From an uncultured Candidatus Micrarchaeota archaeon (lineage in GTDB: Archaea; Micrarchaeota; Micrarchaeia; Micrarchaeales; Micrarchaeaceae): a DNA stretch of 64,000 bases. The first letter of the stretch is position 1, and each line of letters begins with the position of its first letter. Location: NCBI GenBank assembly GCA_963741095.1, contig CAVUGN010000005.1, forward strand, positions 32,001-96,000, read 5' to 3'. The position numbers and the translations under genes are program-made. The notes under the pieces were generated by a model. That model did no database searches. It worked only from the letters and a program-made list of their open reading frames with translations, and was not told where the DNA came from. Below, piece after piece: positions 17,716 through 32,068 of this stretch.

Positions 17716-19926
17716 TCAGTTTGGGGATACCGCCACAGTGAATTGCTGCGTTCCTGATGGTGTTGATACACTACCGACATATCCGTTTATGTCAAGCAGT
17801 GAAGGTATTATCGGCAACTCTCCAACATAGGTTACAACTCCCCAGAAATATGAGGCTATTTCCTCCATGGTATCTTGAATGACTGAAGCAACTGCACTGG
17901 GATCTTTAGTTATTGAGCCCATAATATCCGCCAGCGTACTTATATAACCGTTTGGGTCTTTGCCACTCATTTGTAAGAACTGCCCATAGTAACTAAGCAA
18001 TTCCGAATCCAGATTAAGGGCTTGTATTTCTGCAGGCGTTAATGGTGTTGCGCTTGCAGAAGTGCCCATCGTAGTCGATGTGACGGTTACGACCAAAGGT
18101 GCTGCCCCTAAAGGCGGGCTGATAATCACTGTTGCTGAAGCAACATTCTGCACTACAGTCATGGTTGTGCTATCCGTAGACTGCGGGACAAACTGTATTA
18201 TTTGTTTTGCATTTCCAATCAGTTCTATCATTGCGCGCTGTGCCGGAGTCAAGGCTTGTATCTCGGGAGTGATTGGCTGCGCAACCCCATTTTGCTCTAT
18301 TCTTGCTTTTCCGTAGAGTATGTAGTTCCAGTTGTCCATCTGTGTCTCTGAAGTCAGGTAGGGGGTAGTATAGCCTGCGGCTGCAAAATCGTATATTGCA
18401 GGACCCTGCCAGAAACCTGATCCTAGTTTGGTTGTCGCTCCAGATGGAGCCACACTGCCGATGCTTAGGTCATCCTGCAGGTTTATTGCAGGTATAGGTG
18501 CAGATAATGGCTGGGTACGTTGGGTTGGCGGTTGCTGCACAACTGGTGTTGTGGTTGTCGTTGGGAGAGGGGTCGTCGTAGTTGTTGGAGGAGAAGTCGT
18601 GGTTGTTGTCGTGATCGGTGTCGACAAAGTGTACGGGCCTTGCGAATAGTTGCCGCCTATTGCTATGTATCCGTTCTCCTCAGCGGTGACAGTCTGCGTA
18701 TTGAAGATAGAGCCGTTTATTATGATATTCACGTAACACAGTACGGTCCCTACGAGCTGGTTTGCAGGAATTTCCGCAGATTGCATCTGCGCTATTATGA
18801 CGGCCTGCTGTTGGCCCGAACCCATTCCTGACGATGGAAATGTCACTGATATTGTGGGCGGGGTGTAAGTGGTTTTTGTAATTACTACAGGTGTTGTTGT
18901 TACAGGAGGCGGAGTTGTTGTAGTTGTGGTTGGTGTTGAAGTTGTGGTTGTCGGAGTCGTCGTTGTAGGGGTTGTGGTTGAAGTGGTGTAGCTGCCGGAT
19001 TTTATCGCAGTACACTGAGTGGAGGTCAGTGCCTGTATCTCGGGTGTTATAGGCCGCGTTACTCCGCCGTCGATCCTTGCGGTTCCGTAGAGCACATAGT
19101 TCCAGTTGTCCATTTGCGTTTCGGATGTCAGATAAGGCGTTGTGAACCCTGCGGCTACGAAATCGTACACTGCGGGCCCCTGCCATCCTTCCCATGCGGG
19201 TATGGTCTTCGCTCCCGATGGGTTTGTGTCGCCGATTCCAAGATCGTTCGGCAAGTTTACTGAAGGTATCACAACAGGTGTCTTTGTGATTGTAGTGGTT
19301 GTTGGAGTCGTTGTTGGTGTCGTTGTTGGTGTCGTTGTGGTGGTTGAAGTGGTGTAGCTGCCGGATTCTATCGCAGCACATTGCGCCGTAGTCAGTGCCT
19401 GTATCTCGGGTGTTATGGGCCGCGTTACTCCGCTGTCGATCCTTGCGGTTCCGTAGAGCACATAGTTCCAGTTGTCCATCTGCGTTTCGGATGTCAGATA
19501 AGGCGTTGTGAACCCTGCAGCTATGAAATCGTACACTGCGGGCCCCTGCCATCCCCCCCATGCAGGTATGGTCTTCGCTCCTGACGGGGTCGAATCGCCG
19601 ATTCCCAGATCCGCCGCAAGGTTGATTTGCGGTATGCCTACCAGGCTGACCAGCCTAAAGTATTCGTCCTTGTTATTAATTTTTACGTAGTATTCGGTCG
19701 TTGGTGCTGGTTCTGAAATTTTTTCAGTTTTTGGCGTTTCCGCGCAGGCGCCAGCGCCTGCGACTATGGCTGCCGCTAGGACCACCGGCACCACTGTCCT
19801 TTTGACCATGGAGAAGCCCCTCTCCAATGGGCTTAGATTATGCCTTTCCGTTGCCTCTTGTCCTCTTAACAATTCCACGTTTGCCGTCTTTTCCGTTGTC
19901 TTTTCGATTGTCTTTTCGTTTCGCAT
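17716..19926 (-). CDS. Secreted/surface repeat protein, cassette 1
   Basis: Hydrophobic signal ending AGAGAC; three WQGPA.YDF.AAG.TTPYLTSETQMDNWNY repeats; Thr/Pro linkers. Confidence 0.85.
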   Translation of the reverse strand: MRNEKTIEKTTEKTANVELLRGQEATERHNLSPLERGFSMVKRTVVPVVLAAAIVAGAGACAETPKTEKISEPAPTTEYYVKINNKDEYFRLVSLVGIPQINLAADLGIGDSTPSGAKTIPAWGGWQGPAVYDFIAAGFTTPYLTSETQMDNWNYVLYGTARIDSGVTRPITPEIQALTTAQCAAIESGSYTTSTTTTTPTTTPTTTPTTTTITKTPVVIPSVNLPNDLGIGDTNPSGAKTIPAWEGWQGPAVYDFVAAGFTTPYLTSETQMDNWNYVLYGTARIDGGVTRPITPEIQALTSTQCTAIKSGSYTTSTTTPTTTTPTTTTSTPTTTTTTPPPVTTTPVVITKTTYTPPTISVTFPSSGMGSGQQQAVIIAQMQSAEIPANQLVGTVLCYVNIIINGSIFNTQTVTAEENGYIAIGGNYSQGPYTLSTPITTTTTTSPPTTTTTPLPTTTTTPVVQQPPTQRTQPLSAPIPAINLQDDLSIGSVAPSGATTKLGSGFWQGPAIYDFAAAGYTTPYLTSETQMDNWNYILYGKARIEQNGVAQPITPEIQALTPAQRAMIELIGNAKQIIQFVPQSTDSTTMTVVQNVASATVIISPPLGAAPLVVTVTSTTMGTSASATPLTPAEIQALNLDSELLSYYGQFLQMSGKDPNGYISTLADIMGSITKDPSAVASVIQDTMEEIASYFWGVVTYVGELPIIPSLLDINGYVGSVSTPSGTQQFTVAVSPN

Positions 19927-19941
19927 TGCACCCACCCATTT

Positions 19942-20169
19942 TTACACATCATCTGTTGACACGATCATTGGTGTTACCGTTGAATACCTAGACTGCTGCG
20001 GAGAAATCGGCTCTGCTACCAAATTTTTGGTCTTCGTTTCTTTGATAGCATCCAATTCCTTCACGGAAATGCCGCCGCAACTGTCGCACTCCAAGACCAC
20101 GAGCCTGCTGCCTATGGTCCTCTTGCGCTTCAGCCTGCCCTTTCCGCAACGGCCGCACTTCCCTAACAT
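19942..20169 (-). CDS. Small zinc-ribbon protein
   Basis: CGRC...CDSC. Confidence 0.6.
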   Translation of the reverse strand: MLGKCGRCGKGRLKRKRTIGSRLVVLECDSCGGISVKELDAIKETKTKNLVAEPISPQQSRYSTVTPMIVSTDDV

Positions 20170-20258
20170 GGGATCACATGCGGCTTTCTGCTGTTGCTCT
20201 CGCTTGCCTTCGCTAACCCTTTTGTTGACAAATTTCCACCCAGTCTGTTTGCACCCAC
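20163..20258 (-). CDS. 31-aa ORF, paralog of the N-terminus of 26055-26342
   Basis: GTG start, MGANRLGGNLSTKGLAKA vs MGVNRLGGKLSTNKLARA; stop overlaps the next ATG. Confidence 0.5.
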   Translation of the reverse strand: MGANRLGGNLSTKGLAKASESNSRKPHVIPC

Positions 20259-20272
20259 TTAATATGATCTGA

Positions 20273-20464
20273 TTAACTCCTTGGATTGGCGTCTATCGTT
20301 ACCTGTATGCTACCTACGGAAAACCGCATCATGTCCGATATGTAGCCGCCAATCTCGCTCTCCCTGCAGTACGCCTTGCCCTCAACGCTGTTTGTGCAAA
20401 CATGCACGAGAACGCGCCTATCATCCATCGAAAAAATCTTTTTTATCCTTGCACTTGCGCCCAT
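20273..20464 (-). CDS. 63-aa hypothetical protein, paralog of 26357-26548
   Basis: Protein conserved between copies despite many nucleotide changes. Confidence 0.8.
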   Translation of the reverse strand: MGASARIKKIFSMDDRRVLVHVCTNSVEGKAYCRESEIGGYISDMMRFSVGSIQVTIDANPRS

Positions 20465-20580
20465 TCTACCACCCTATTGATCATGAGGGTAGGGGGTTGT
20501 ACCGCGGAAGCATGGTGAGAATGTGGATGAAGAGCTTGCGCTGATCCATGAAAAATTCTTACTTCCACCCCTGTACAACC
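20465..20580 (-). promoter_or_regulatory. Conserved structured 5' leader, copy 1 (possible 22-aa uORF 20481-20549)
   Basis: Near-identical to 26549-26664; nested stems ggttgtac/gtacaacc, ggaag/cttcc, agaat/attct, tggat/atcca, agc-GCAA-gct. Confidence 0.6.
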
Positions 20581-20769
20581 TACACACCCGTATGATATTA
20601 TGAATGAGGTTGTATATATTTATGAGCTGAACGTGTGCAACTTTTTGACCAGTCAATGCTTTAAAGATTTATAATTTATTAGTCCTTTAATTAAATTTAT
20701 ATGTGTTATAAAAGTTATATATACTTATTATAGTAAGGTTTAAATATCTTAAAAGTGTTAATATAACAC

Positions 20770-22182
20770 ATGGCAGAAACACCAGATGTGATACTAAACA
20801 CATATAAACGAGTCAGCAACGAGTATCCTTCTTTCATTGCGCTGAAGAGGATAAACGCCAAATACTACCTGTATAGCCAAACCACAAGATACGATAAAAA
20901 AGAAAAAAAGCAGAAAACAGTCTCGAAATACCTGGGTAGGATAACTGCCGAAGGCGTCTTTATAAAAAAATCAAGGACCTCTGAAAAAGACGATTTGGAA
21001 ATCGCAAAGGCGGTGATAGAGGCGCATGGCGGAAAGGTTGTTCTTCCTGAAACGGCTGGCAACAACGTTCAGGTTGCGGCAAAAAACTTTGTCTTGGATG
21101 AAATTGACAATCGGATATTGACTGTTATGAGCATGAACGCCAGGGCAAGCGCTGCTTTCATAGGAGCGCATGTGGCGACTAAACGAAGCGTTGTTGAGAG
21201 TAGGATAAAAAAACTGGAGAAAGAATATGAAATAAAGTATGTGGCCGAAATAAACACAGAAAAGCTTGGTTACTCTAGATTCCTAGCTTTTAGTAAATTT
21301 CTTGGAAAAATACCAATGATTGATACTATAAAAACTGCAATCGAAACAATACCCAATGTACAATTGGTCGCAACGCTTAAAGGAAAATATGACCTACTTG
21401 TTTACATTCTTGCAAAGAATAACGAGGAATTGTCCATCATTCTAACTAATATAGAGCAAGGCCTATCTACGTACAAAATGGAGTGGTACAGCAGTTATCT
21501 TCATGAAACTTACAACTTTGTACCCGTACGAGATGAATTTCTTGAACTTGTAAAAGGAGATCTCAAGCAAAGGGAGTATAATCTTCTGAGAGAATTCAAT
21601 AATAATGGCAATAAAGAATTCGCTAAGATCGACAAGAGATATGCTCAGGAGCATGGGAGGTCATCCTATGCTTATTATGGCCTCATAAATAACGGTTTGT
21701 TAAAGCGCATTACGATAAACATGTGCACAACTCCAATTAAGTATGTTGGAGTGATATATGCTTCTTTCTTAAACAGAGATAAGTTTGATAAAAATAGAGA
21801 GAAATTATTAAAGAACATGATTGAAGAGGTTAAATCACCTGCAACAAAATATATTTTAGTTGGAGATGTAGGCATGCCACGCGGGGTTATACTCTTTGCC
21901 CCAGTTTTCTTGGAGGGAGACCTGGAAAGAGACCAAGAAGAGTTGGAGAGGTTGGAATTGGGCGTTGCATTAGAAACATATATTGTATCCAAGGTAATAG
22001 TCGGCTCTTTTTGCTTTAGAAAATTTGATAATGGACACTCGCGCCAGTACGATATACTGGTTGAAAAATACGGGATTCCGAAGAGGCCATATCTGAATTA
22101 CCATGATACAGGAAGGATGAAAAAAGAAAGCCAGAGAAGGGACATAAGAGGTCTAAAACTGAATGACGCAGAAGAAGTATGA
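20770..22182 (+). CDS. Large Lrp/AsnC-type transcriptional regulator with extra N-terminal domain
   Basis: LDEIDNRILTVMSMNARAS HTH, KGKYDLLVY RAM-like segment, second HTH-like half; KRINAKYYLY...YLGRI N-terminus. Confidence 0.8.
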   Translation: MAETPDVILNTYKRVSNEYPSFIALKRINAKYYLYSQTTRYDKKEKKQKTVSKYLGRITAEGVFIKKSRTSEKDDLEIAKAVIEAHGGKVVLPETAGNNVQVAAKNFVLDEIDNRILTVMSMNARASAAFIGAHVATKRSVVESRIKKLEKEYEIKYVAEINTEKLGYSRFLAFSKFLGKIPMIDTIKTAIETIPNVQLVATLKGKYDLLVYILAKNNEELSIILTNIEQGLSTYKMEWYSSYLHETYNFVPVRDEFLELVKGDLKQREYNLLREFNNNGNKEFAKIDKRYAQEHGRSSYAYYGLINNGLLKRITINMCTTPIKYVGVIYASFLNRDKFDKNREKLLKNMIEEVKSPATKYILVGDVGMPRGVILFAPVFLEGDLERDQEELERLELGVALETYIVSKVIVGSFCFRKFDNGHSRQYDILVEKYGIPKRPYLNYHDTGRMKKESQRRDIRGLKLNDAEEV

Positions 22183-22235
22183 TATGCCTTATTGATAAAT
22201 TAATCCGAGAAGTAACCGTATATCAAGAATTTTGT

Positions 22236-22262
22236 TTAGCCAGTCCAGCCTCCGTCTCCCAT
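22236..22262 (-). CDS. Micro-peptide MGDGGWTG
   Basis: GGTGAAACT-ATG ribosome-binding context; member of a five-copy family. Confidence 0.6.
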   Translation of the reverse strand: MGDGGWTG

Positions 22263-22275
22263 AGTTTCACCTGCA

Positions 22276-22302
22276 TTAGCCGCTTGATCCTCCATCTCCC
22301 AT
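22276..22302 (-). CDS. Micro-peptide MGDGGSSG
   Basis: GTGAGATT-ATG context directly after a repeated promoter. Confidence 0.6.
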   Translation of the reverse strand: MGDGGSSG

Positions 22303-22350
22303 AATCTCACTGTTCAAACATCTCTGAAAAAGCTTAAAAAGCTTGTGTTC
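22303..22350 (-). promoter_or_regulatory. Repeated promoter-like element of the micro-ORFs (also about 28344-28389 and 28477-28523)
   Basis: acacaa..t.tttaag..tt.tcagagatg.tt.aa.agtgaga.tATG occurs three times with TATA-like TTTAAG. Confidence 0.6.
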
Positions 22351-22372
22351 TGGGAACAGCGATTGCTGTTTG

Positions 22373-22390
22373 GCAGCGCTTTCGCGCTGC
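22373..22390 (-). terminator. GC hairpin downstream of Fe-S gene (second copy 28546-28563)
   Basis: GCAGCGC-GAAA-GCGCTGC conserved in both copies. Confidence 0.45.
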
Positions 22391-22428
22391 AGGAACAGTG
22401 CCGATGCAGGTTAAACTGAAGAAAAGAG

Positions 22429-23220
22429 TTAACCTATCAGCAAACCTTCTATCCTTACCTGGTAGCCGTCCTTTATCTTGTTCATGAAGTTCACCAGGCC
22501 GCTGTGCCTCCATTGGAGCATGCACCTTCTCGGAAGGAACCAATATCTCATGCCGATCTTAAGGTCCATCCTCGAGTCGCGGATTATGCCTTCATAGGCT
22601 TCCGCTATGTAGTAGCCGATGTCCTTGTAGCCCTGGGCTCTTGGCTGCAATGGGCCAGTGACGCACCAGACTATCACTCCCGTCTTGTAGTCAGCCTCCA
22701 TGACAACGCCGCAGTGCGTTATCGGGCAGCCGCATGACATGCCCAACGGCCTTCCAATCATTATGTCTCCCTTCTTTATCCCCATCTTTTCAGTAAGGGC
22801 AGGGTTGTGCGGAAGTATCGTCTCCCTCGGGCCCGGCTCACCCGGGAATGTCTCAAGAACAAAGTCGAACTCACGTGATAGAGTGTCCTTCCAGTTCTTG
22901 CTGTCAGTGCCTATCGCAGCAGACGCGCAGCCTGCGCATCCCGCTGTCGCAACCGTAGCCTCGTTGACCGGCCTTCCTATGACATCGGTCCTAGGCTGGC
23001 CATAAGCTGTCTGGGTCATTCTCTGCTGCGGAGCTGCGCTCGCGACCTTAGGCGCAGACGCACTGTTCCTGCCCAGGTTCGTGCACCTCTTCATCTCGTC
23101 CGCATTGCTTGCGGCCGCTTCTGCCAGATCGCTGCACGACTTGTATCCGCATGCGCCGCAATCAAGCTTGGGCAGCTGTTCCAGTATCTTATCGCTCTCT
23201 TTTGTTGTCTTTTTTGCCAT
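22429..23220 (-). CDS. (Fe-S)-binding protein, copy 1
   Basis: LPKLDCGACGYKSC FeS domain; protein identical to 28602-29393. Confidence 0.88.
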   Translation of the reverse strand: MAKKTTKESDKILEQLPKLDCGACGYKSCSDLAEAAASNADEMKRCTNLGRNSASAPKVASAAPQQRMTQTAYGQPRTDVIGRPVNEATVATAGCAGCASAAIGTDSKNWKDTLSREFDFVLETFPGEPGPRETILPHNPALTEKMGIKKGDIMIGRPLGMSCGCPITHCGVVMEADYKTGVIVWCVTGPLQPRAQGYKDIGYYIAEAYEGIIRDSRMDLKIGMRYWFLPRRCMLQWRHSGLVNFMNKIKDGYQVRIEGLLIG

Positions 23221-23229
23221 TCGATCACT

Positions 23230-23313
23230 TCATTCTCCTTGATAGAATATGTCGCTGTTGAGCGGCCTCACAACACCGAAGTGCTGCTTCCAGCCAATCT
23301 CCTTCTTGCCCAC
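23230..23313 (-). pseudogene. 3' fragment of the GTP-binding protein gene
   Basis: VGKKEIGWKQHFGVVRPLNSDIFYQGE identical to the C-terminus of 29403-30104. Confidence 0.85.
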
Positions 23314-24077
23314 AAGCAAATTAGGGATGAAAATATGAGTATGAACATGGCAGAACCAAGCATGTGCAAGCTTACACTCATGAAAGCCAGCCCGGATAAA
23401 AGTTCTGGAAACTGGATTATGGCGTCGGCTAGCAATACTAGGACAAAGAAACATGCGATTATCGCGCCGCCGAACAAGGATAAAGCCGTTATTAAGACGC
23501 TTTTTCCTTTGATCCATATCCTGATTGCATGGATAAGCAACACTGTGTTTATGACTGAAAAGAACCCGTATGTGATTACGCTATCCACTTGAAAGAGGGA
23601 TATTCCAGTGAAGTACATCTTAAAAAAATAAAGGATTATGACGGTGGAGTACTGCGATGCTATTGATGATAAAAAGAAGGCTGTGGCCATATGGCTTTTT
23701 GGTTCATGTAGATAATTTTTAATCTTTGTTTTTTTGCCATGCGAATTTTTGTAGTTGTAGAGCACATCGAAAATGAACAGGAATAAAAATGCAAAGAATA
23801 TATCTTCTGTAGTTGCGACCAGATAAGAATGGACGGTGGTATCAGTGGCTGCCTGGGTGGAATTTAAGGAAACCTCTTCAGTATATCCGTTGAATATGTT
23901 GATTGCTAGAAAACTTAATGAAGGAGGTGACGCACGCGGCAGCGTGGCTGAGGTATACCCAGGGTATGTGCTTGCGTAAAAATTGCTAACCAAATAAATT
24001 GGTACGATCATCGCTAGGAATAGGAGAGGGTACAACTTGTACGCCTTTAAACTAGCAACTAATCCCTCGCTGTGCAT
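23268..24077 (-). CDS. Multi-pass membrane protein, immunity candidate
   Basis: About six TM segments, AT-rich; last residues read from the duplicated segment in another frame. Confidence 0.7.
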   Translation of the reverse strand: MHSEGLVASLKAYKLYPLLFLAMIVPIYLVSNFYASTYPGYTSATLPRASPPSLSFLAINIFNGYTEEVSLNSTQAATDTTVHSYLVATTEDIFFAFLFLFIFDVLYNYKNSHGKKTKIKNYLHEPKSHMATAFFLSSIASQYSTVIILYFFKMYFTGISLFQVDSVITYGFFSVINTVLLIHAIRIWIKGKSVLITALSLFGGAIIACFFVLVLLADAIIQFPELLSGLAFMSVSLHMLGSAMFILIFSSLICLWARRRLAGSSTSVL

Positions 24078-24154
24078 TTCGTCTACAGCATAGTTTAATC
24101 ATAGGCACCTTGATAAATGTGCCGTTGATCCACAATGTTTACATTGGATTTCCT

Positions 24155-26005
24155 TCATGGTAACAATATGACCGGTTCGCCAAGTGTTGCACGCAGGAAA
24201 TTGATTATCGATTGTATCTCCGACTTTTTTTGCTGGACATAATTTGTAGCTGCAGTCTGGTTTCCTTCGAGCATTTGCACAAAATTCCGCATTGAAGAAG
24301 CCAAACCAGGGATGATGACAGGTATTGGGATGGGTATGCCTCCAGATCCGTCTTCGGCAACCAAATCACCGACTAAACCGCTGATATCCCCCTTTGTGAC
24401 TATGCTTATTCCTGTGCTTAGGTCGCCTAGCCAGTTTGAAAGTTCCCCTAAGGCTCCTGCAGTATCACTGCCGTCTAGGAGCTTTGATAAAGCATCGAGT
24501 ATTCCGGAAGTCGCTGCAGCCGCATTGCCAAGTTGATCCGTCAATGCTGATGCGTTGATTGGATTTGTGGGCAGAGTGTATTGCAGTGTAATGGGTATTG
24601 AATTGATGGTAATTGTTTGGGATACGGGATGACTGATCAAATAAGGGGGCTGAGTTATAGTAAGGCCGCTACCTATGATAAGAGCAAGAGTTGGATTGCT
24701 TGTTAGATAGTTATTGGATTTTATCGCCGAGCACTGCGCCGCTGTCAGTGCTTTAATCTCCGGGGTTATCGGCCTTGTTATTCCACTATCTACTCTTGCG
24801 GTTCTGAATAGCACGTAGTTCCAATTGTCCATCTGTGTTTCTGAGGTAAGATACGGTGTCGTGAACCCTGCAGCTGCAAAATTGTACGATGATGGACCTT
24901 GCCAGCCTAACCAAGCAGGCTTACTCGCCGTAGACGCACTAACGCCCATGCCCAAGTCATCCAGCAAATCTACCTCTAATACTTGAGTTGAAGTCTGGAT
25001 TGGAGTGGTGGTTGGAGTTTGGGTAGGTGTTGTAGTCGTAGTAGTGGTTGTTCGTATTGGTGTCGTAGTTGAAGTAGGTGTCGGTATTACAGTCGAATAA
25101 TTTCCAGATTTTATCGCCGAGCACTGCGCCGCAGTCAGAGCCTGTATCTCAGCAGTTACCGGTCTTGTGACTCCGCTGTCAACTCTTGCTGTTCTGAAGA
25201 GCACGAAGTTCCAGTTGTCCATCTGAGTTTCCGTTGTTAGGTAGGGGGTTACGAATCCTGCGGCTGCAAAATTGTACACTGCAGGTCCCTGCCAGCCCTG
25301 ATAGCCGTATATCGTCTTCGCTCCAGACGGAGTCACATCACTGATGCCCAGATCGCCGGGCAGGTTTATTGGCGGTATCGTAGTTGGAGTTACTGTCGTT
25401 GTGGTGGGTGTTGGGGTCGTTGTGGTTGGCGTTGGAGTTGGCGTAGTCGTTGTCGTGGTTGGAACTATCGGGGCCGTGTACGGCACCTGAGAGACGTTGC
25501 CACCAACTTGAATGTACCCATTGCTCAATGCAGTGATGGTGTCCGTGTTATTCAGAATTCCGTTTACGTAAACGTTCGCATAACACAGGATGGTGCCTTG
25601 GGTTTGGTTTGCTGGAACTCCTGCCGATTGCATCTTCGACATTATGTCGCTTATCAGCTGGTTTATGCTTTCCCCTGTATTTGCCATGATCACCGATACG
25701 GTCGGTATATTATCGACCTGGCTTACCAGTCTAAGGTATGAATGCTGATTATCCTCCATCATCTCGTATTTTGCCGCGGTTGCTTGTTTTGGATTGGTGG
25801 TTATACTTTCGGCTTCCACCCTGCCGATGCCTGGGCTTATTGCCAGGACAGTTGCCAATACTACAGGCAACACCATATTTCTGGCTATGGATAGACCCCT
25901 ATTCAATGGATTTGCCTGGTGCCTTTCTGCTGCATCTTGCCCTCTCAGCAATTCCACGTTTGCTGTCTTTTCAGTTGCCTTTTCGATTGTCTTTTCGTTT
26001 CGCAT
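24155..26005 (-). CDS. Secreted/surface repeat protein, cassette 2
   Basis: Same MRNEKTIEK.TEKTANVELLRGQ N-terminus; two WQGP...QMDNWN repeats; distinct C-terminus. Confidence 0.85.
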   Translation of the reverse strand: MRNEKTIEKATEKTANVELLRGQDAAERHQANPLNRGLSIARNMVLPVVLATVLAISPGIGRVEAESITTNPKQATAAKYEMMEDNQHSYLRLVSQVDNIPTVSVIMANTGESINQLISDIMSKMQSAGVPANQTQGTILCYANVYVNGILNNTDTITALSNGYIQVGGNVSQVPYTAPIVPTTTTTTPTPTPTTTTPTPTTTTVTPTTIPPINLPGDLGISDVTPSGAKTIYGYQGWQGPAVYNFAAAGFVTPYLTTETQMDNWNFVLFRTARVDSGVTRPVTAEIQALTAAQCSAIKSGNYSTVIPTPTSTTTPIRTTTTTTTTPTQTPTTTPIQTSTQVLEVDLLDDLGMGVSASTASKPAWLGWQGPSSYNFAAAGFTTPYLTSETQMDNWNYVLFRTARVDSGITRPITPEIKALTAAQCSAIKSNNYLTSNPTLALIIGSGLTITQPPYLISHPVSQTITINSIPITLQYTLPTNPINASALTDQLGNAAAATSGILDALSKLLDGSDTAGALGELSNWLGDLSTGISIVTKGDISGLVGDLVAEDGSGGIPIPIPVIIPGLASSMRNFVQMLEGNQTAATNYVQQKKSEIQSIINFLRATLGEPVILLP

Positions 26006-26054
26006 GTTTACCCACCCATTTTAAGCATGATATTATCCCGCCATCAGCCCAATC

Positions 26055-26342
26055 TTAGACCATTGCTACGAAGGCCTTGCTGACGCCACGCAATGCCCGT
26101 TCCTTCGCGTCCTTCAGCTCGCTATTGTTCCTGTAAAACCGTATTTCGGCCACGCAGTCGCCATAGCGGTTGTAGATGGGAATGCGCTGCCTGCGCCATA
26201 TGTCCATCAGCCTCTTCGCAAAATCGCTGTTCCCGCCCTTCAGCTGCAGGAAGATCTGCCTGCACGCTTTGCCCTTGCCACTTCCGATTGCTCGCGCTAG
26301 CTTGTTTGTTGACAATTTTCCACCCAGTCTGTTTACACCCAC
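26055..26342 (-). CDS. Small basic hypothetical protein
   Basis: 95-aa ORF, GTG start, co-oriented in the cassette operon. Confidence 0.6.
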   Translation of the reverse strand: MGVNRLGGKLSTNKLARAIGSGKGKACRQIFLQLKGGNSDFAKRLMDIWRRQRIPIYNRYGDCVAEIRFYRNNSELKDAKERALRGVSKAFVAMV

Positions 26343-26356
26343 TTAACGTGATCTGA

Positions 26357-26548
26357 TTAACTCATTGGATTCGCGTCTATCATGACATGCATACTTCCGG
26401 CTGAAAGCCTCATCATATCGGAGATGTAGCTGCCGACTTCTTTCTCCCGGCAGTAAGCTTTGCCTTCTACGCTGTTCGTGCAGACCCGAACGAGAACGCG
26501 CCCATCATCCATCGAAAAAATCTTTTTTATTCTTGCGCTTGCATCCAT
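26357..26548 (-). CDS. 63-aa hypothetical protein, paralog of 20273-20464
   Basis: ASARIKKIFSMDD.RVLV.VCTNSVEGKAYCRE conserved. Confidence 0.8.
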   Translation of the reverse strand: MDASARIKKIFSMDDGRVLVRVCTNSVEGKAYCREKEVGSYISDMMRLSAGSMHVMIDANPMS

Positions 26549-26664
26549 TCTACCACTCTATTGATCATGAGGGTAGGGGGTTGCACCGCGGAAGCATGGT
26601 GAGAATGTGGATGAAGAGCTTGCGCTGATCCATAGAAAATTCTTACTTCCACCTCTGTACACCC
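26549..26664 (-). promoter_or_regulatory. Conserved structured 5' leader, copy 2 (possible uORF 26565-26633)
   Basis: Near-identical to 20465-20580. Confidence 0.6.
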
Positions 26665-26847
26665 TTTCCACCCAATAAGAGATTATGAATTTTATTGTAT
26701 ATATCAATGAGTAGGGTAAAATTGCACAAACGACGGCAAAATGCCAACAATAACCACAGATATTCTTAGGTTTGTTATGTTTTTACATGGGTTATAAGAT
26801 GGTGCATAACAAAAGTTTTAAATATCTTATATGTTGGTATATAACCT

Positions 26848-28269
26848 ATGGATGGTGTACCTAAGAATGTGGTAGCAACATTCAGTAAGCTAAGGAAAGA
26901 ATATTCGTTTTATACCACACTGAAGAGGATAAACGACAAATATTACTTATACCACCAATCCACCATATGGCTGAAAAACGCTAAGAAAACGAAGACAGTT
27001 TCGGAGTATCTCGGCAGGATAAGAGATGATGGTGCGTTCATAAAGAAGATGCATCTGGCAAAAAGCAACCTTGTGGATGCGGAATCTTTGATAACTGCGC
27101 ATGGCGGTGAGGTAATATGGCATGGCGATACCGACAAAGTTGCAAAACCACAAACGGAAAGACATGACTTAGCGTTTACCGAGGTGGAGAACAGGCTTCT
27201 GACTACTCTCAGTATGAACGCAAGAGCCAGCTTGGCGTTTGTGGGTCGGCAGATTGGTTTAACCCCTTCTATAACTTATAATCACGTGAAGCAATTGGAA
27301 AAGAAGTGCGGGATAAGGTACATTGCAGAGATTAACCCAGAGAAGTTAGGCTACCTCAGATTTTTTGTGATGGTAAAGTTTCGAGACAGGATACCAAACG
27401 AACTGGAACTCAAGGCCGTAATCAGCAAGAGCCCGAACGTTCAACTTGCCATGCTGACGAAAGGGAAATACGACCTTATGATTTACGTGCTAGCTACAAG
27501 TAATCTTGACATAATGAGAGTGGTCATAGACATGCGGATGGGACTTGTGGACTATCCATCTGAGTGGTACATAGTCAATTTTTATGAGCATTTCAACTTT
27601 GTGCCGTTGAGGGATGAATTCATAGACGTCCTGAAGGCAAACCTCCTAAATCGAGAGTATTCCGTTTTGAAAGAGCTGAATCAAAGTGGGAACAAAGATT
27701 TTGTTGACATAGATCGAAAATATGGCTTCGATGAGGGTAGATCATCTTACACTTTTTACAGGCTCAAAGAAAAGGGGATAATCGATAGAGTGACGGTGAC
27801 TTTGAGCAATACTGTTGTTAAGTACGTTGGGGTGATATTTTTGAACATCATAGACCGGAAGAAATTCGGGAAAAACAGAGAAAAACTTCTGTCATACACT
27901 ATAAGAGAAAAAGACGCTCCGACGATGAATTATGTGCTTGCTGGGGATGACGGAAACCCGGACGGCATACTTTACTTCGTACCTGTGCTGAATGAAGGTG
28001 ATCTCGAAAGGGAAGCTGAGGGTATGGAAAAGCTGGATTTGGGTGCTAAATTTGATACGGCAATAGTATTGAATACACTGTTGGGTTCATTTTGTTATAG
28101 GAAATTCGATTATGTGTACTCAAAGCAACATATGCGACTTGTCGAGGATTATGGATTGCCGCAAAAAGATCAAAAAAACTATGAAGACACTGGAAGAAAG
28201 TCCTGTCACATCGCAACTGGCAAAAGACGCATCGGCATAAGAGGAGAAGAAATCAGAATAGATAACTAA
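26848..28269 (+). CDS. Large Lrp/AsnC-type regulator, paralog of 20770-22182
   Basis: KRINDKYYLY...YLGRI; LSMNARASL HTH; KGKYDLMIY; GSFCYRKFD. Confidence 0.8.
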   Translation: MDGVPKNVVATFSKLRKEYSFYTTLKRINDKYYLYHQSTIWLKNAKKTKTVSEYLGRIRDDGAFIKKMHLAKSNLVDAESLITAHGGEVIWHGDTDKVAKPQTERHDLAFTEVENRLLTTLSMNARASLAFVGRQIGLTPSITYNHVKQLEKKCGIRYIAEINPEKLGYLRFFVMVKFRDRIPNELELKAVISKSPNVQLAMLTKGKYDLMIYVLATSNLDIMRVVIDMRMGLVDYPSEWYIVNFYEHFNFVPLRDEFIDVLKANLLNREYSVLKELNQSGNKDFVDIDRKYGFDEGRSSYTFYRLKEKGIIDRVTVTLSNTVVKYVGVIFLNIIDRKKFGKNREKLLSYTIREKDAPTMNYVLAGDDGNPDGILYFVPVLNEGDLEREAEGMEKLDLGAKFDTAIVLNTLLGSFCYRKFDYVYSKQHMRLVEDYGLPQKDQKNYEDTGRKSCHIATGKRRIGIRGEEIRIDN

Positions 28270-28316
28270 TAAGAATAGCTAGTGCTTAACCTGAACAGAT
28301 GTTCTATCAAACCGAC

Positions 28317-28343
28317 TTAACCGCCGTTTCCTCCTCCATCCAT
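28317..28343 (-). CDS. Micro-peptide MDGGGNGG
   Basis: GTGAGACT-ATG after repeated promoter. Confidence 0.6.
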   Translation of the reverse strand: MDGGGNGG

Positions 28344-28389
28344 AGTCTCACTATTAAAGCATCTCTGAAAAGGCTTAAATAGATTGTGT

Positions 28390-28413
28390 TCAGCCAGTTC
28401 CACCTCCATCCAT
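28390..28413 (-). CDS. Micro-peptide MDGGGTG
   Basis: GATGAAACA-ATG context; family member. Confidence 0.55.
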   Translation of the reverse strand: MDGGGTG

Positions 28414-28434
28414 TGTTTCATCTTCTAGATTGCA

Positions 28435-28476
28435 TTAGCCGTTACCGCCGCCACCGCTTCCTCCATCTCCTTCCAT
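28435..28476 (-). CDS. Micro-peptide MEGDGGSGGGGNG
   Basis: GTGAGACT-ATG after repeated promoter. Confidence 0.6.
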   Translation of the reverse strand: MEGDGGSGGGGNG

Positions 28477-28601
28477 AGTCTCACTGTTCAAACATCTCTG
28501 AGAAGACTTAAAAAGTTTGTGTTTTAAGGACAGAGTTGCTGTTTGGCAGCGCTTTCGCGCTGCAGGAATAGTGCTGATGTAGGTTAAACTAAATAAAAGA
28601 A

Positions 28602-29393
28602 TTAACCTATCAGCAATCCTTCTATCCTTACCTGGTAGCCGTCCTTTATCTTGTTCATGAAGTTCACCAGGCCGCTGTGCCTCCATTGGAGCATGCACCT
28701 CCTCGGAAGGAACCAATATCTCATGCCTATCTTCAGGTCCATCCTTGAGTCGCGGATTATCCCTTCATATGCTTCCGCTATGTAGTAGCCGATGTCCTTG
28801 TAGCCCTGCGCCCTTGGCTGCAACGGACCTGTGACGCACCAGACTATCACTCCCGTCTTGTAGTCGGCTTCCATCACAACGCCGCAGTGCGTTATCGGGC
28901 AGCCGCATGACATGCCCAACGGCCTTCCAATCATTATGTCTCCCTTCTTTATCCCCATCTTTTCAGTAAGGGCAGGGTTGTGCGGAAGTATCGTCTCCCT
29001 CGGGCCCGGCTCACCCGGGAATGTCTCAAGAACAAAGTCGAACTCACGTGATAGAGTGTCCTTCCAGTTCTTGCTGTCAGTGCCTATCGCAGCAGACGCG
29101 CAGCCTGCGCATCCCGCTGTCGCAACCGTAGCCTCGTTGACCGGCCTTCCTATGACATCGGTCCTAGGCTGGCCATAAGCTGTCTGGGTCATTCTCTGCT
29201 GCGGAGCTGCGCTCGCGACCTTAGGCGCAGACGCACTGTTCCTGCCCAGGTTCGTGCACCTCTTCATCTCGTCCGCATTGCTTGCGGCCGCTTCTGCCAG
29301 ATCGCTGCACGACTTGTATCCGCATGCGCCGCAATCAAGCTTGGGCAGCTGTTCCAGTATCTTATCGCTCTCTTTTGTTGTCTTTTTTGCCAT
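28602..29393 (-). CDS. (Fe-S)-binding protein, copy 2 (within intact operon)
   Basis: CGACGYKSC; GRPLGMSCGCPITHCG; CMLQWRHSG. Confidence 0.88.
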   Translation of the reverse strand: MAKKTTKESDKILEQLPKLDCGACGYKSCSDLAEAAASNADEMKRCTNLGRNSASAPKVASAAPQQRMTQTAYGQPRTDVIGRPVNEATVATAGCAGCASAAIGTDSKNWKDTLSREFDFVLETFPGEPGPRETILPHNPALTEKMGIKKGDIMIGRPLGMSCGCPITHCGVVMEADYKTGVIVWCVTGPLQPRAQGYKDIGYYIAEAYEGIIRDSRMDLKIGMRYWFLPRRCMLQWRHSGLVNFMNKIKDGYQVRIEGLLIG

Positions 29394-29402
29394 TCGATCA
29401 CT

Positions 29403-30104
29403 TCATTCTCCTTGATAGAATATGTCGCTGTTGAGCGGCCTCACAACACCGAAGTGCTGCTTCCAGCCTATCTCCTTCTTGCCCACGCATATGGTGCATG
29501 TTCCTACCGGCGGGTTGCCCCTCAAGAAGAGCGGGAACTTGATGTCATTCGACTTCTCTATCTTGTTCACCAGCGGCTCTATGCCTATGCCGTACAAGGC
29601 GTTAGTCTCGAAGACGTGCGAATCCTTCGCAGCGTCCATTATCCTTGCCCTGAAGACCTCTCTTTCTGCCTGCGATATCATGTCTATCTTTGTTACCACG
29701 ACCATGTCCGCGAGCGAGAGCATCGGACCCACCTTGTTCGGCAGGTTCGCTCCGCTTGTCGCTTCCAACACGACCATGCCCAAAGATGATTCCACATAAG
29801 GCGAGCATCTCAGGCACAGCCCAGCCGTTTCTATGAAAAGCATCTCTGCGCCCTCCTTTGCCGCCCATTCTATCGCGTCCCCTATGACCATCACGTTGCA
29901 GTGATCGGGGCAAAGTTCACCAGAGTAGACCTTCTTCGTGGGTATGTTGAACTCCTTCGCGAATATCTCGTCCTCATCGGCGTACTGCACGTCGATCTTG
30001 ACGTATGCCATCTTCGTGCCCTTCTCTGCAAACTTCTTGACTATCCTTCTCAACACGGTCGTCTTGCCGGTTGTGGGCGGACCCGCGCATATAACCATTT
30101 TCAT
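29403..30104 (-). CDS. HypB/UreG/CobW-like (G3E) GTP-binding protein
   Basis: GPPTTGKT, LCPDH, ETAGLCLRCSPY, TKID. Confidence 0.88.
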   Translation of the reverse strand: MKMVICAGPPTTGKTTVLRRIVKKFAEKGTKMAYVKIDVQYADEDEIFAKEFNIPTKKVYSGELCPDHCNVMVIGDAIEWAAKEGAEMLFIETAGLCLRCSPYVESSLGMVVLEATSGANLPNKVGPMLSLADMVVVTKIDMISQAEREVFRARIMDAAKDSHVFETNALYGIGIEPLVNKIEKSNDIKFPLFLRGNPPVGTCTICVGKKEIGWKQHFGVVRPLNSDIFYQGE

Positions 30105-31066: not shown

Positions 31067-32068
31067 ATGAGCGAGGAGAAAGGGGCGCAGAAAGCAAATG
31101 ACGGGAGGATGACTTCCGACAGAGCGGACGCGATGAGGGCGTTCGTCAGGCAGGCAGATGGCCAGTCGGGCACAGAGATAAAAAAGCAGACTACGGAACT
31201 GAACAATTTTATAAGGAGGGTCGGTCCCCCCATAAAGAAAAGTGGTGTGGACGAGGAGGAGGCAAGGGAGCTTGGAAGGAAACTCGTCGGGGAATTGAAC
31301 AGAACGAATTATGACGGGATAATGATTGATGCGAATCTGAATAATGTCAGGGATCTGGTACGTGACGGAGCGAAAATATATTCGGAGGCACTGCGTATGG
31401 CTATGGCACATGAACAGGTAGACATTGTCAAATTTCTCATAGAAAATGGAGCGGATGTCAACTGTGGATGGGATAGGGGAGCGACGCCGTTGATGTACGC
31501 TGTACGCGAAGGCAATAAGGAGATTGTCGAACTATTGCTGAACGCAGGCGCGGACATGAATGCCATGGATCGCGAAGGCACAACTGCGCTGATGTCGGCG
31601 TCGTCGAGGGGCTACGCGGATATTGTTGACCTGTTGGTACAAAGGGGCGCCGACGTGGATGTGATTGGTTTTATGGGCAGAAAGGCGGTGAATTTTGCTA
31701 GGGATAACGTCATAAGGCAGATGCTCGAAGGGAAACCGTTTGTTCCAGGAACAAAAGTTGAGACAGTAAAGGAAGTGGATGCTGCAGAGGCGAAGATGTT
31801 GGGTGTGCAGCTGCTTGAGGAAACGATTGAAAGAAAGACCGACTTTGGCAAGGTCAAAGAGTTGATAGATAACGGAGCGGATGTGGACATGAGAGATAAG
31901 AATGGCCTGACGCCGCTGATGTACGCTTCGTTTGGCGGCGACGTCGAAGTTGTTGATTACCTGCTGCGCTGCGGTGCTTACGCGGGATTGCGGGATAACG
32001 ACGGCAAGACAGCCGCGGATTACGCCTACAGGTATGATATAAGGAAGATGCTCCAAGAAGCAGCATAA
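31067..32068 (+). CDS. Ankyrin repeat protein with conserved N-terminal leader
   Basis: GATPLMYA, GTTALMSA, GLTPLMYA repeats; NDGRMTSDRADAMRAFVRQADG leader. Confidence 0.92.
   Translation: MSEEKGAQKANDGRMTSDRADAMRAFVRQADGQSGTEIKKQTTELNNFIRRVGPPIKKSGVDEEEARELGRKLVGELNRTNYDGIMIDANLNNVRDLVRDGAKIYSEALRMAMAHEQVDIVKFLIENGADVNCGWDRGATPLMYAVREGNKEIVELLLNAGADMNAMDREGTTALMSASSRGYADIVDLLVQRGADVDVIGFMGRKAVNFARDNVIRQMLEGKPFVPGTKVETVKEVDAAEAKMLGVQLLEETIERKTDFGKVKELIDNGADVDMRDKNGLTPLMYASFGGDVEVVDYLLRCGAYAGLRDNDGKTAADYAYRYDIRKMLQEAA

Follow-up and report, generated by a model that had tools for sequence, protein, structure and literature searches.

In the RRNPP pairs of Firmicutes and phages (Rap/Phr, Rgg/SHP, PlcR/PapR and AimR/AimP), the mature peptide signals are 5-10 residues long, and some Rgg/SHP pairs are convergent. 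Bacterial leader peptides, such as trpL, hisL, pheL and the cat/cmlA leaders, matter through the act of their translation. We analyzed a 64-kb stretch of DNA (hereafter the window) from an uncultured Candidatus Micrarchaeota archaeon, in which glycine-rich open reading frames (ORFs) of only a few codons, here called micro-ORFs, lie on the minus strand and face the 3' ends of two plus-strand genes for a tandem Lrp/AsnC-like protein, here called the regulator. We favor, with slightly less than even confidence, a reading of the sequence in which the micro-ORFs may be mini-cistrons that are translated and are coupled in function to the RAM-domain regulator beside them. The central features are as follows (window coordinates are those of contig C5 minus 32000).

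22236-22262, minus strand: micro-ORF MGDGGWTG, second cistron, with GGTGAAACT ahead of its start (sequence reading and ORF scan)
22276-22302, minus strand: micro-ORF MGDGGSSG, first cistron of its unit (sequence reading and ORF scan)
28317-28343, minus strand: micro-ORF MDGGGNGG (sequence reading and ORF scan)
28390-28413, minus strand: micro-ORF MDGGGTG, internal cistron without its own TATA, with GATGAAACA ahead of its start (sequence reading and ORF scan)
28435-28476, minus strand: micro-ORF MEGDGGSGGGGNG (sequence reading and ORF scan)
22290-22360, minus strand: conserved promoter unit (nhmmer, C5:54360-54290, E 3.7e-19)
28331-28398, minus strand: promoter unit, second copy at its locus (nhmmer, E 6.2e-19)
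28465-28533, minus strand: promoter unit, first copy at its locus (nhmmer, E 1.4e-17)
20770-22182, plus strand: 470-aa tandem Lrp/AsnC-like protein, predicted to be leaderless (Pfam, AlphaFold 2 [AF2], Foldseek, TATA spacing)
26848-28269, plus strand: 473-aa paralog, 45% identical to the 470-aa protein (sequence comparison)

An independent ORF scan recovered all five micro-ORFs that the initial annotation had proposed for the window, each with an ATG, a DGG core, a terminal glycine and a stop. The promoter unit consists of AACACAAGCT-TTTAAG, which includes a TATA-like box, then CAGAGATG..CAGTGAGAyT, and then the ATG. The 40-nt block that runs from TTTAAG to ATGG, whose recurrence had also been proposed, is present three times on the minus strand of the window (22299-22338, with no mismatches, 28340-28379 and 28473-28512) and has no match in 100 shuffles of the window sequence. 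GTGA precedes four of the five micro-ORFs in the window, and GATGA precedes the remaining one. Both groups are convergent on a plus-strand ORF, of 470 and 473 aa, respectively.

We built a profile from 13 promoter units and ran it on the whole host genome assembly (1.08 Mb in 11 contigs, 94% complete). The search returned 16 copies of the ~70-nt unit (E 1.8e-20 to 1.3e-7), and all 16 are convergent on a regulator paralog, 22-430 nt from its 3' end; genome-wide, the profile gave no convincing unit away from the paralogs (next match, E 0.009). There are 12 regulator paralogs in the genome, counting all matches, and every one of them has at least one unit. With internal cistrons included, the family comprises 21 micro-ORFs of 5-13 codons each, and one promoter is followed by one to five of them (seven in a relative). 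Convergence on, and linkage to, the regulator family, which the initial annotation had described for five micro-ORFs, are therefore properties of a wider family. The genome contains 7754 ATG-initiated micro-ORFs of 5-14 codons, only 28 of which are Gly-rich, and 19 of these 28 fall inside the twelve convergent 600-nt zones, which cover 0.33% of the strand space. Among the 19, MGGGTCR has no promoter unit and is probably a chance occurrence, and three micro-ORFs that miss the Gly filter (MGDGM, MEGSCG and MSEGGWS) were counted in the family for their promoter unit. The GTGA context is found in none of the nine Gly-rich micro-ORFs outside the convergent zones. The linkage between micro-ORFs and regulator is far beyond chance. 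Together, the 12 cassettes occupy ~1.6% of the genome DNA. The promoter pattern had no matches in viral contigs, and a BLAST search of the unit against the same-genus genome G001 (84% complete, 140 contigs) gave no match and was uninformative.

The same geometry suits another explanation. Micro-ORF stops lie 10-416 nt from regulator stops (shortest gaps 10, 17 and 22 nt), a spacing that permits overlapping convergent transcripts, and all units share one orientation. The cassette might thus be a convergent-transcription device, in which antisense RNA or transcriptional interference sets the level of the regulator while the tiny ORF does no more than load and release ribosomes, which would protect the RNA or block translation into the antisense of the gene. 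By eye, a run of at least four T residues follows the last micro-ORF in only about 4-5 of 12 loci, and most transcripts would therefore be expected to continue into the regulator gene. In addition, the promoter is more conserved than the ORF body, and the peptide sequence is poorly conserved between orthologs. We consider this explanation somewhat unlikely: fixed orientation is also explicable by descent from a single ancestral cassette, and such a device leaves unexplained the tandem arrays of up to seven ORFs, each with a Shine-Dalgarno (SD)-like site, the exclusion of basic and hydrophobic residues, and a 58-aa coding gene found at the same place elsewhere (see below).

Four results point to translation, as in the mini-cistron reading that we favor: the ATG, the GTGA/GGTGA context, the frame-specific stop and the unstructured RNA. 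The start codon is ATG in all 21 micro-ORFs, and GTGA lies no more than 14 nt upstream of it in 18. To examine stop placement, we defined the G-rich core without regard to reading frame. In the ATG frame, the first stop falls 0-6 nt past this core in 17 of 21 cases, and a stop never occurs inside it; for the other frames, the counts are 0 and 2 of 21 past the core, and 4 and 3 inside it. Internal cistrons that have no TATA retain the GGTGAAAyT-ATG context, as do all seven tandem ORFs at one locus of a relative (L038). The predicted transcripts are unstructured in all six stretches analyzed (z -0.2 to +1.5 versus shuffles). The micro-ORF TATA sits ~31 nt ahead of the ATG, which, given the archaeal spacing from TATA to transcription start, suggests a leader of about 8 nt; the TATA-like boxes of the regulator genes lie ~23 nt ahead of their ATG, and leaderless mRNAs are therefore predicted for them. 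A genome-wide histogram of TATA-to-ATG spacing had too much noise for the transcription start to be placed. The invariant ATG and the frame-specific stops agree with the proposal of the initial annotation that this is a selected family with translation-type signals.

The composition of the micro-ORFs is also skewed. Their 148 non-Met residues comprise G90 (61%), D14, S9, E8, T7, N6, A4, P3 and W2; K, L, Q, M and C occur once each, and R, H, I, V, F and Y are absent. A single K and no R in such a purine-rich stretch indicate that all-purine Lys and Arg codons are avoided. A glycine share this high could also fit a minigene that acts on the translation machinery, titrating or sensing tRNA-Gly or ribosomes, either by drop-off of peptidyl-tRNA or by reading Gly-tRNA charging in the manner of an attenuator, under the restraint of the regulator. 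GGA (tRNA-Gly UCC) and terminal GGC/GGT (tRNA-Gly GCC) predominate, and the assembly has one gene for each of these two tRNAs. We judge such a minigene to be highly improbable: no co-directional gene lies downstream to be attenuated, folding predicts no alternative hairpins, a single metabolite would hardly account for twelve diverged paralogs, and relatives have versions that are not Gly-rich.

Beyond the host genome, the regulator family is present at E <= 0.001 in 38 of the 41 genomes of the order, the host genome counted. When a phylum-wide sample was searched at E <= 1e-60, two families had it, one in 36 of 45 genomes (the 36 include the unpublished G054) and the other in 17 of 25, and it was found in none of 80 genomes from 18 other families. 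Source annotations call these homologs Lrp/AsnC regulators of Candidatus Micrarchaeota, and 235 clusters at 50% identity match the partner at E <= 1e-30. At loci from other genera, the convergent strand carries Gly-rich micro-ORFs in 14 of 29 and 9 of 33 cases (23/62). The co-directional strand does so in 0 of 29 and 1 of 33 (1/62), and each of two upstream controls in 1 of 29; search zones were 500-700 nt, four of them shortened by contig ends. Examples include seven tandem ORFs in L038 (MGGAGGGG, MGGSGGGS, etc.), MGGTGGGA (L017), MNGGPNGGG (L054) and MEKGPAGGG (L040). An SD-like 4-mer precedes 26 of 30 of these Gly-rich micro-ORFs; for the remaining micro-ORFs of those zones, the count is 55 of 264. 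A crude TATA-plus-micro-ORF filter was passed by 38 of 60 convergent zones versus 14 of 60 controls, two truncated loci having been dropped. Relatives also carry promoter-driven micro-ORFs that are not Gly-rich (MDPDGSSLTN, MTGPDWTN, MDGDC and MDSHRAAP). The pairing is conserved across genera, and the homologous loci, which the initial annotation had proposed as a check, keep start, frame and stop.

Two side observations concern these relatives. By eye, five loci (L021, L027, L031, L032 and L039) have differing inverted repeats between the TATA and the micro-ORF ATG on the convergent strand, for example CATTCCAgtTTGGAATG, ACACCCAATttttgATTGGTGT and ATACACtctggGTGTAT; judged from sequence, these could be candidate paralog-specific operators. 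In addition, many regulator homologs are no more than a few hundred bases away from a contig end (e.g., G074:C28:68-1402, G085:C39:140-1519 and G134:C1:336-1721), which suggests that cassette repeats are likely to break assemblies and that copy numbers in metagenome-assembled genomes are therefore underestimated.

The partner protein itself matches HTH_AsnC (PF13404) at 29.4 bits (cut-off 27) and the RAM domain (PF01037) at 24.9 bits, just below the cut-off of 25; Pfam returned only HTH_AsnC, RAM and MarR-type helix-turn-helix (HTH) families. The AF2 model (pLDDT 86, pTM 0.72) shows an Lrp/AsnC-type fold: an N-terminal beta domain (residues 1-66) and a disordered linker are followed by HTH+RAM modules at 111-249 and 255-412, such that the Lrp/AsnC domain order, HTH then RAM, is modeled twice in one chain. 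With Foldseek, the model matches many single-module Lrp/AsnC structures (TMt 0.60-0.83, probability 1.0), several of which, from their entry titles, were solved with bound amino acids. The best whole-chain match is the siroheme decarboxylase NirDL (4ch7; E 1.4e-12, TMt 0.65, 11% identity). Named Lrp-type equivalogs (LysM, LrpA, AsnC, Lrp and ChrS) scored at best 33.6 and 40.6 bits against NCBIfam cut-offs of 180-250. PADLOC defence models, run on four paralogs, had no match for three and weak HTH-only CasR/Csa3 matches for one. For the N-terminal domain (~66 residues, AF2 pLDDT 80), Foldseek found no PDB match at E <= 0.001, and matches in the ESM Atlas were all below 0.9.

We propose that the micro-ORFs would be transcribed independently and would make up the constant second member of a two-gene cassette, with the tandem Lrp/AsnC-like protein as the first. 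A TATA-type promoter ~31 nt before the ATG would give an ~8-nt 5' end and drive the very short ORFs. In each of these, an SD-like GTGA/GGTGA precedes the ATG, and the Gly/Asp/Ser-rich body runs straight into a stop; all are aimed at the regulator gene's 3' end. Control of the unit's promoter may lie with the adjacent protein, acting at the conserved or inverted-repeat sequence that separates TATA from the start. The oligo-glycine peptides, acidic, intracellular and unprocessed, may in turn feed back on the adjacent protein, and the most plausible site for a peptide would be the pocket between its RAM domains, which is where amino acids are bound in single-module relatives. A more specific version, in which each paralog of this tandem RAM-domain (ACT-like) transcription factor is wired to its own encoded, unprocessed oligo-glycine/aspartate peptides (5-16 residues) as effector, seems to us unlikely. 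If it is true, these archaea, which depend on a host and have tiny genomes, would possess a bank of a dozen private circuits switched by peptides, which would adjoin genes for surface and small proteins and be swapped as cassettes between conserved flanking repeats.

Several observations weigh against the favored reading, or against a reading at the level of the peptide alone. The initial annotation noted synonymous variation among Gly codons; GGA, GGC, GGT and GGG do all occur, but the choice among them is not free. GGA makes up 57 of the 90 Gly codons in the micro-ORFs (63%) and 86 of 129 in the micro-ORFs of relatives. In ordinary genes its share is ~22% (71 of 323 for the paralogs, 51 of 239 for six others). 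This excess suggests constraint at the nucleotide or tRNA level. When 18 of the 21 micro-ORFs were folded with ViennaRNA including G-quadruplex terms, the minimum-energy fold of 10 contained a two-tetrad G-quadruplex. Both results would fit a nucleic-acid element, in which (GGN)n would serve at the DNA or RNA level, for instance as a former of two-tetrad G-quadruplexes or R-loops downstream of a strong promoter or as an SD-like GGAGG decoy, and the frame is incidental. We find this very unlikely, since the other 8 of the 18 have no predicted G-quadruplex, promoter-driven micro-ORFs at the same place in relatives are not G-rich (MDPDGSSLTN, MTGPDWTN and MDSHRAAP), GGC, GGT and GGG stand for GGA at many positions with Gly retained, and the ATG and the frame-specific placement of stops would be left unexplained.

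Further points bear on the coupling of mini-cistrons to the regulator. In the one ortholog pair available within the genus, the regulators share 75% identity, and the 7-codon ORF is MSEGGWS in one member and MAANWGG in the other. Nor does peptide class track regulator similarity: the regulators at the two loci with MGDGG-type micro-ORFs are only 31% identical. The promoter unit is nearly identical among paralogs of 31-45% identity, which argues against paralog-specific operators in the host genome. A tandem Lrp fold can be that of an enzyme, as the top whole-chain match to NirDL illustrates, and we know of no precedent for peptides of 5-13 residues as RAM-domain ligands. Finally, a metatranscriptome run sharing 8% of sampled words yielded only two 151-nt contigs for window positions 20000-30000; both fall on an FeS-domain (iron-sulfur) gene, leaving the micro-ORF region uncovered.

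At the same convergent position behind regulators, six further loci carry, in place of the micro-ORFs, a conserved family of ORFs of 58-62 aa, in one to three copies and often in tandem, with 35-57% amino acid identity and the motif MGS..G.LY..R[IV]VFV..CP..F[RK]DD[FY]SKGF.

L030:569-1442, plus strand: 58-aa family, three copies
L034:1276-1455: 58-aa family
L042:2359-2502, minus strand: 58-aa family
L043:2930-3291, minus strand: 58-aa family, two copies
L044:2888-3073, minus strand: 58-aa family
L058:483-644: 58-aa family

L043 comes from genome contigs and L044 from metagenome contigs (single-protein search). A small coding gene in this position speaks for the mini-cistron reading. The family was not found in the host genome, Pfam gave nothing above chance for it, and the ESM Atlas nothing usable (pLDDT of its own Atlas model, 0.32). 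L044 has the 16-mer AACACAAGCTTTTTAA in common with the window unit, as well as CAGTGA ahead of its ATG-GGA. The unit profile did not match L044 at E 0.01, and homology of the two promoter types therefore rests on this short identity. Together with signs of gene conversion in the cassette flanks, the convergent position and the shared 16-mer raise the prospect that the micro-ORFs are decaying or neutral remnants, truncated N-termini of the 58-aa gene that are kept through homogenization of the promoter by gene conversion. We regard this as quite unlikely: the ATG is kept in 21 of 21, only the ATG frame has stops right behind the G core, the ORFs have multiplied instead of disappearing, many genera in two families show the same composition and SD-like context, and the profile misses L044.

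The wider surroundings of the cassette contain the following features.

22373-22390, minus strand: GC hairpin GCAGCGC-GAAA-GCGCTGC between the FeS-domain gene and the promoter unit (sequence reading)
28546-28563: GC hairpin, second copy (sequence reading)
20451-20591, minus strand: ~140-nt conserved leader behind a divergent promoter (alignment)
26536-26676, minus strand: ~140-nt conserved leader, second copy (alignment)
20273-20464, minus strand: 63-aa small ORF X (form 1), after the leader
26357-26548, minus strand: 63-aa small ORF X, second copy
26055-26342 and 19942-20169, minus strand: small ORFs of no known family, after the leader
L078:766-966, minus strand: small ORF of no known family, after the leader
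17716-19935 and 24155-26005, minus strand: large Thr/Pro-rich proteins on the divergent side, past the leader and small ORFs

From its sequence, the hairpin at 22373-22390 is probably the end of the upstream transcript. The two window loci form a duplicated arrangement of ~6 kb, each with, in this order, a Thr-rich protein (739 or 616 aa), a regulator, micro-ORFs and a 263-aa FeS-domain protein. We compared the copies at 20221-23313 and 26305-29486: DNA identity is 85% in the flank at 20221-20626 and 96.5% in the flank at 22288-23313, while the regulator genes between these flanks have no BLASTN match and encode proteins only 45% identical. Between the two genes for the 263-aa FeS-domain protein there are 15 differences, all at third codon positions and all in the 3' third, and the encoded proteins are identical. 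Conserved flanks around dissimilar regulators, together with this pattern in the FeS-domain genes, suggest gene conversion or cassette exchange, and conservation of flank and leader places the variable regulator and micro-ORF body between two conserved repeats. The leader is common to eight paralog loci and is 78-92% identical between them. A fuzzy search found the divergent promoter motif (TATATATACAA-N6-TTCATAATATCATAyGGGTG) at 10 of 12 loci, and by eye it is apparently present at all 12. Folding of the leader (RNAalifold, -24.6 kcal/mol) gave long-range complementarity but a compensatory change in only 1 of 31 pairs, and an RNA structure is therefore not supported.

ORFs that follow the leader come in two alternative forms of 63-66 aa, one with CWMCG, and there is also a 52-aa MDIWRRQRIPLYD... 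ORF; two other loci have a RAM-only-like ORF of 88-126 aa in place of the small ORF. Pfam gave nothing above chance for the small neighboring ORFs. The Thr/Pro-rich proteins have an N-terminal hydrophobic segment and internal 300-nt repeats, with no Pfam match, and by these sequence features are likely to be surface proteins. A further protein family, with the common N-terminus ..GKMT.DR..A.KAFVRQ..G.., is encoded in the window at 31067-32068 (plus strand; ankyrin-repeat-like by eye) and at C5:94563-97165 (minus strand), and four tandem paralogs of it adjoin another cassette. Six regulator/micro-ORF cassettes lie within 24 kb of contig C11 (C11:34700-58200; L078, L012). Between them are ORFs with CxxxCxxC motifs, which we take to be radical-SAM-like, small proteins with the common N-terminus MGEKM[DE]KQASKAESATRVQN, and a 647-aa ORF taken as peptidase-like without a domain scan.

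ORFs as short as these micro-ORFs escape all gene callers, yet they are among the most regularly organized features of the genome. Even under the rival explanations, they would belong to a conserved regulatory cassette in Micrarchaeota-type DPANN archaea, in which regulation and host interaction are almost unknown. At the gathering threshold, Rfam matched only two tRNAs in the window, and an E-value scan of 19900-22500 gave a single chance-level match (E 0.64). A C/D-box small RNA, considered as a candidate from the sequence, was dropped since Rfam found nothing. Full-text literature searches, covering article listings and passages of PMC5498576, returned no description of the system, in agreement with the initial annotation, which knew of no archaeal equivalent. 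The pairing matches no described system, and five known systems come close enough for comparison.

By fold, the partner resembles the Lrp/AsnC feast/famine regulatory proteins (FFRP) of archaea and bacteria, with which it shares HTH_AsnC and RAM. Unlike these, it fuses two HTH+RAM modules and adds an N-terminal beta domain of ~66 residues, and its family is confined in the sample searched to two families of one order. Among the matches listed, NirDL/AhbAB (4ch7, 4czc and 4czd) are the only solved proteins that span both modules as a fused chain; their identity to the partner is 11-12%, the whole-chain root-mean-square deviation is about 11 A, and no heme-pathway context was seen. Type I toxin-antitoxin loci and other 3'-overlapping convergent RNA pairs resemble the predicted arrangement in having a short, separately promoted, convergent transcript that adjoins or overlaps the 3' end of a protein gene. 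Unlike type I toxins, the peptides here are hydrophilic and Gly/Asp-rich (no I, V or F and one L in 148), and the partner is of a DNA-binding type.

Bacterial leader peptides are similar in being ORFs of 5-20 codons that are enriched in one amino acid and have their own start signals. They differ from the micro-ORFs in that no same-strand gene follows here; the next feature is the stop of the convergent gene, 10-416 nt away. Unlike attenuators, each unit has its own promoter, and no terminator or antiterminator structures were predicted in the six stretches folded.

The analogy to RRNPP pairs, drawn in the initial annotation, holds for the layout. In both, a short peptide gene adjoins a transcription-factor gene, and one genome has many diverged paralogous pairs (here all 16 units and all 12 paralogs). 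The analogy does not extend to the components: the RRNPP receptor is a tetratricopeptide repeat (TPR) protein and the receptor here would be a tandem HTH+RAM fold, and RRNPP peptides are exported and processed from a pro-peptide, whereas 5-13 codons leave no room for a signal or pro-region. With an Lrp/AsnC-type rather than a TPR receptor, membership in RRNPP fails. Also unlike RRNPP, the predicted peptides are acidic and oligo-glycine, and the hosts are DPANN-type archaea. If the peptides are made and act on their neighbor, this would be the first archaeal pairing of a peptide with a transcription factor to be described, the first such pairing to use RAM domains and the first with a signal encoded at its final size.

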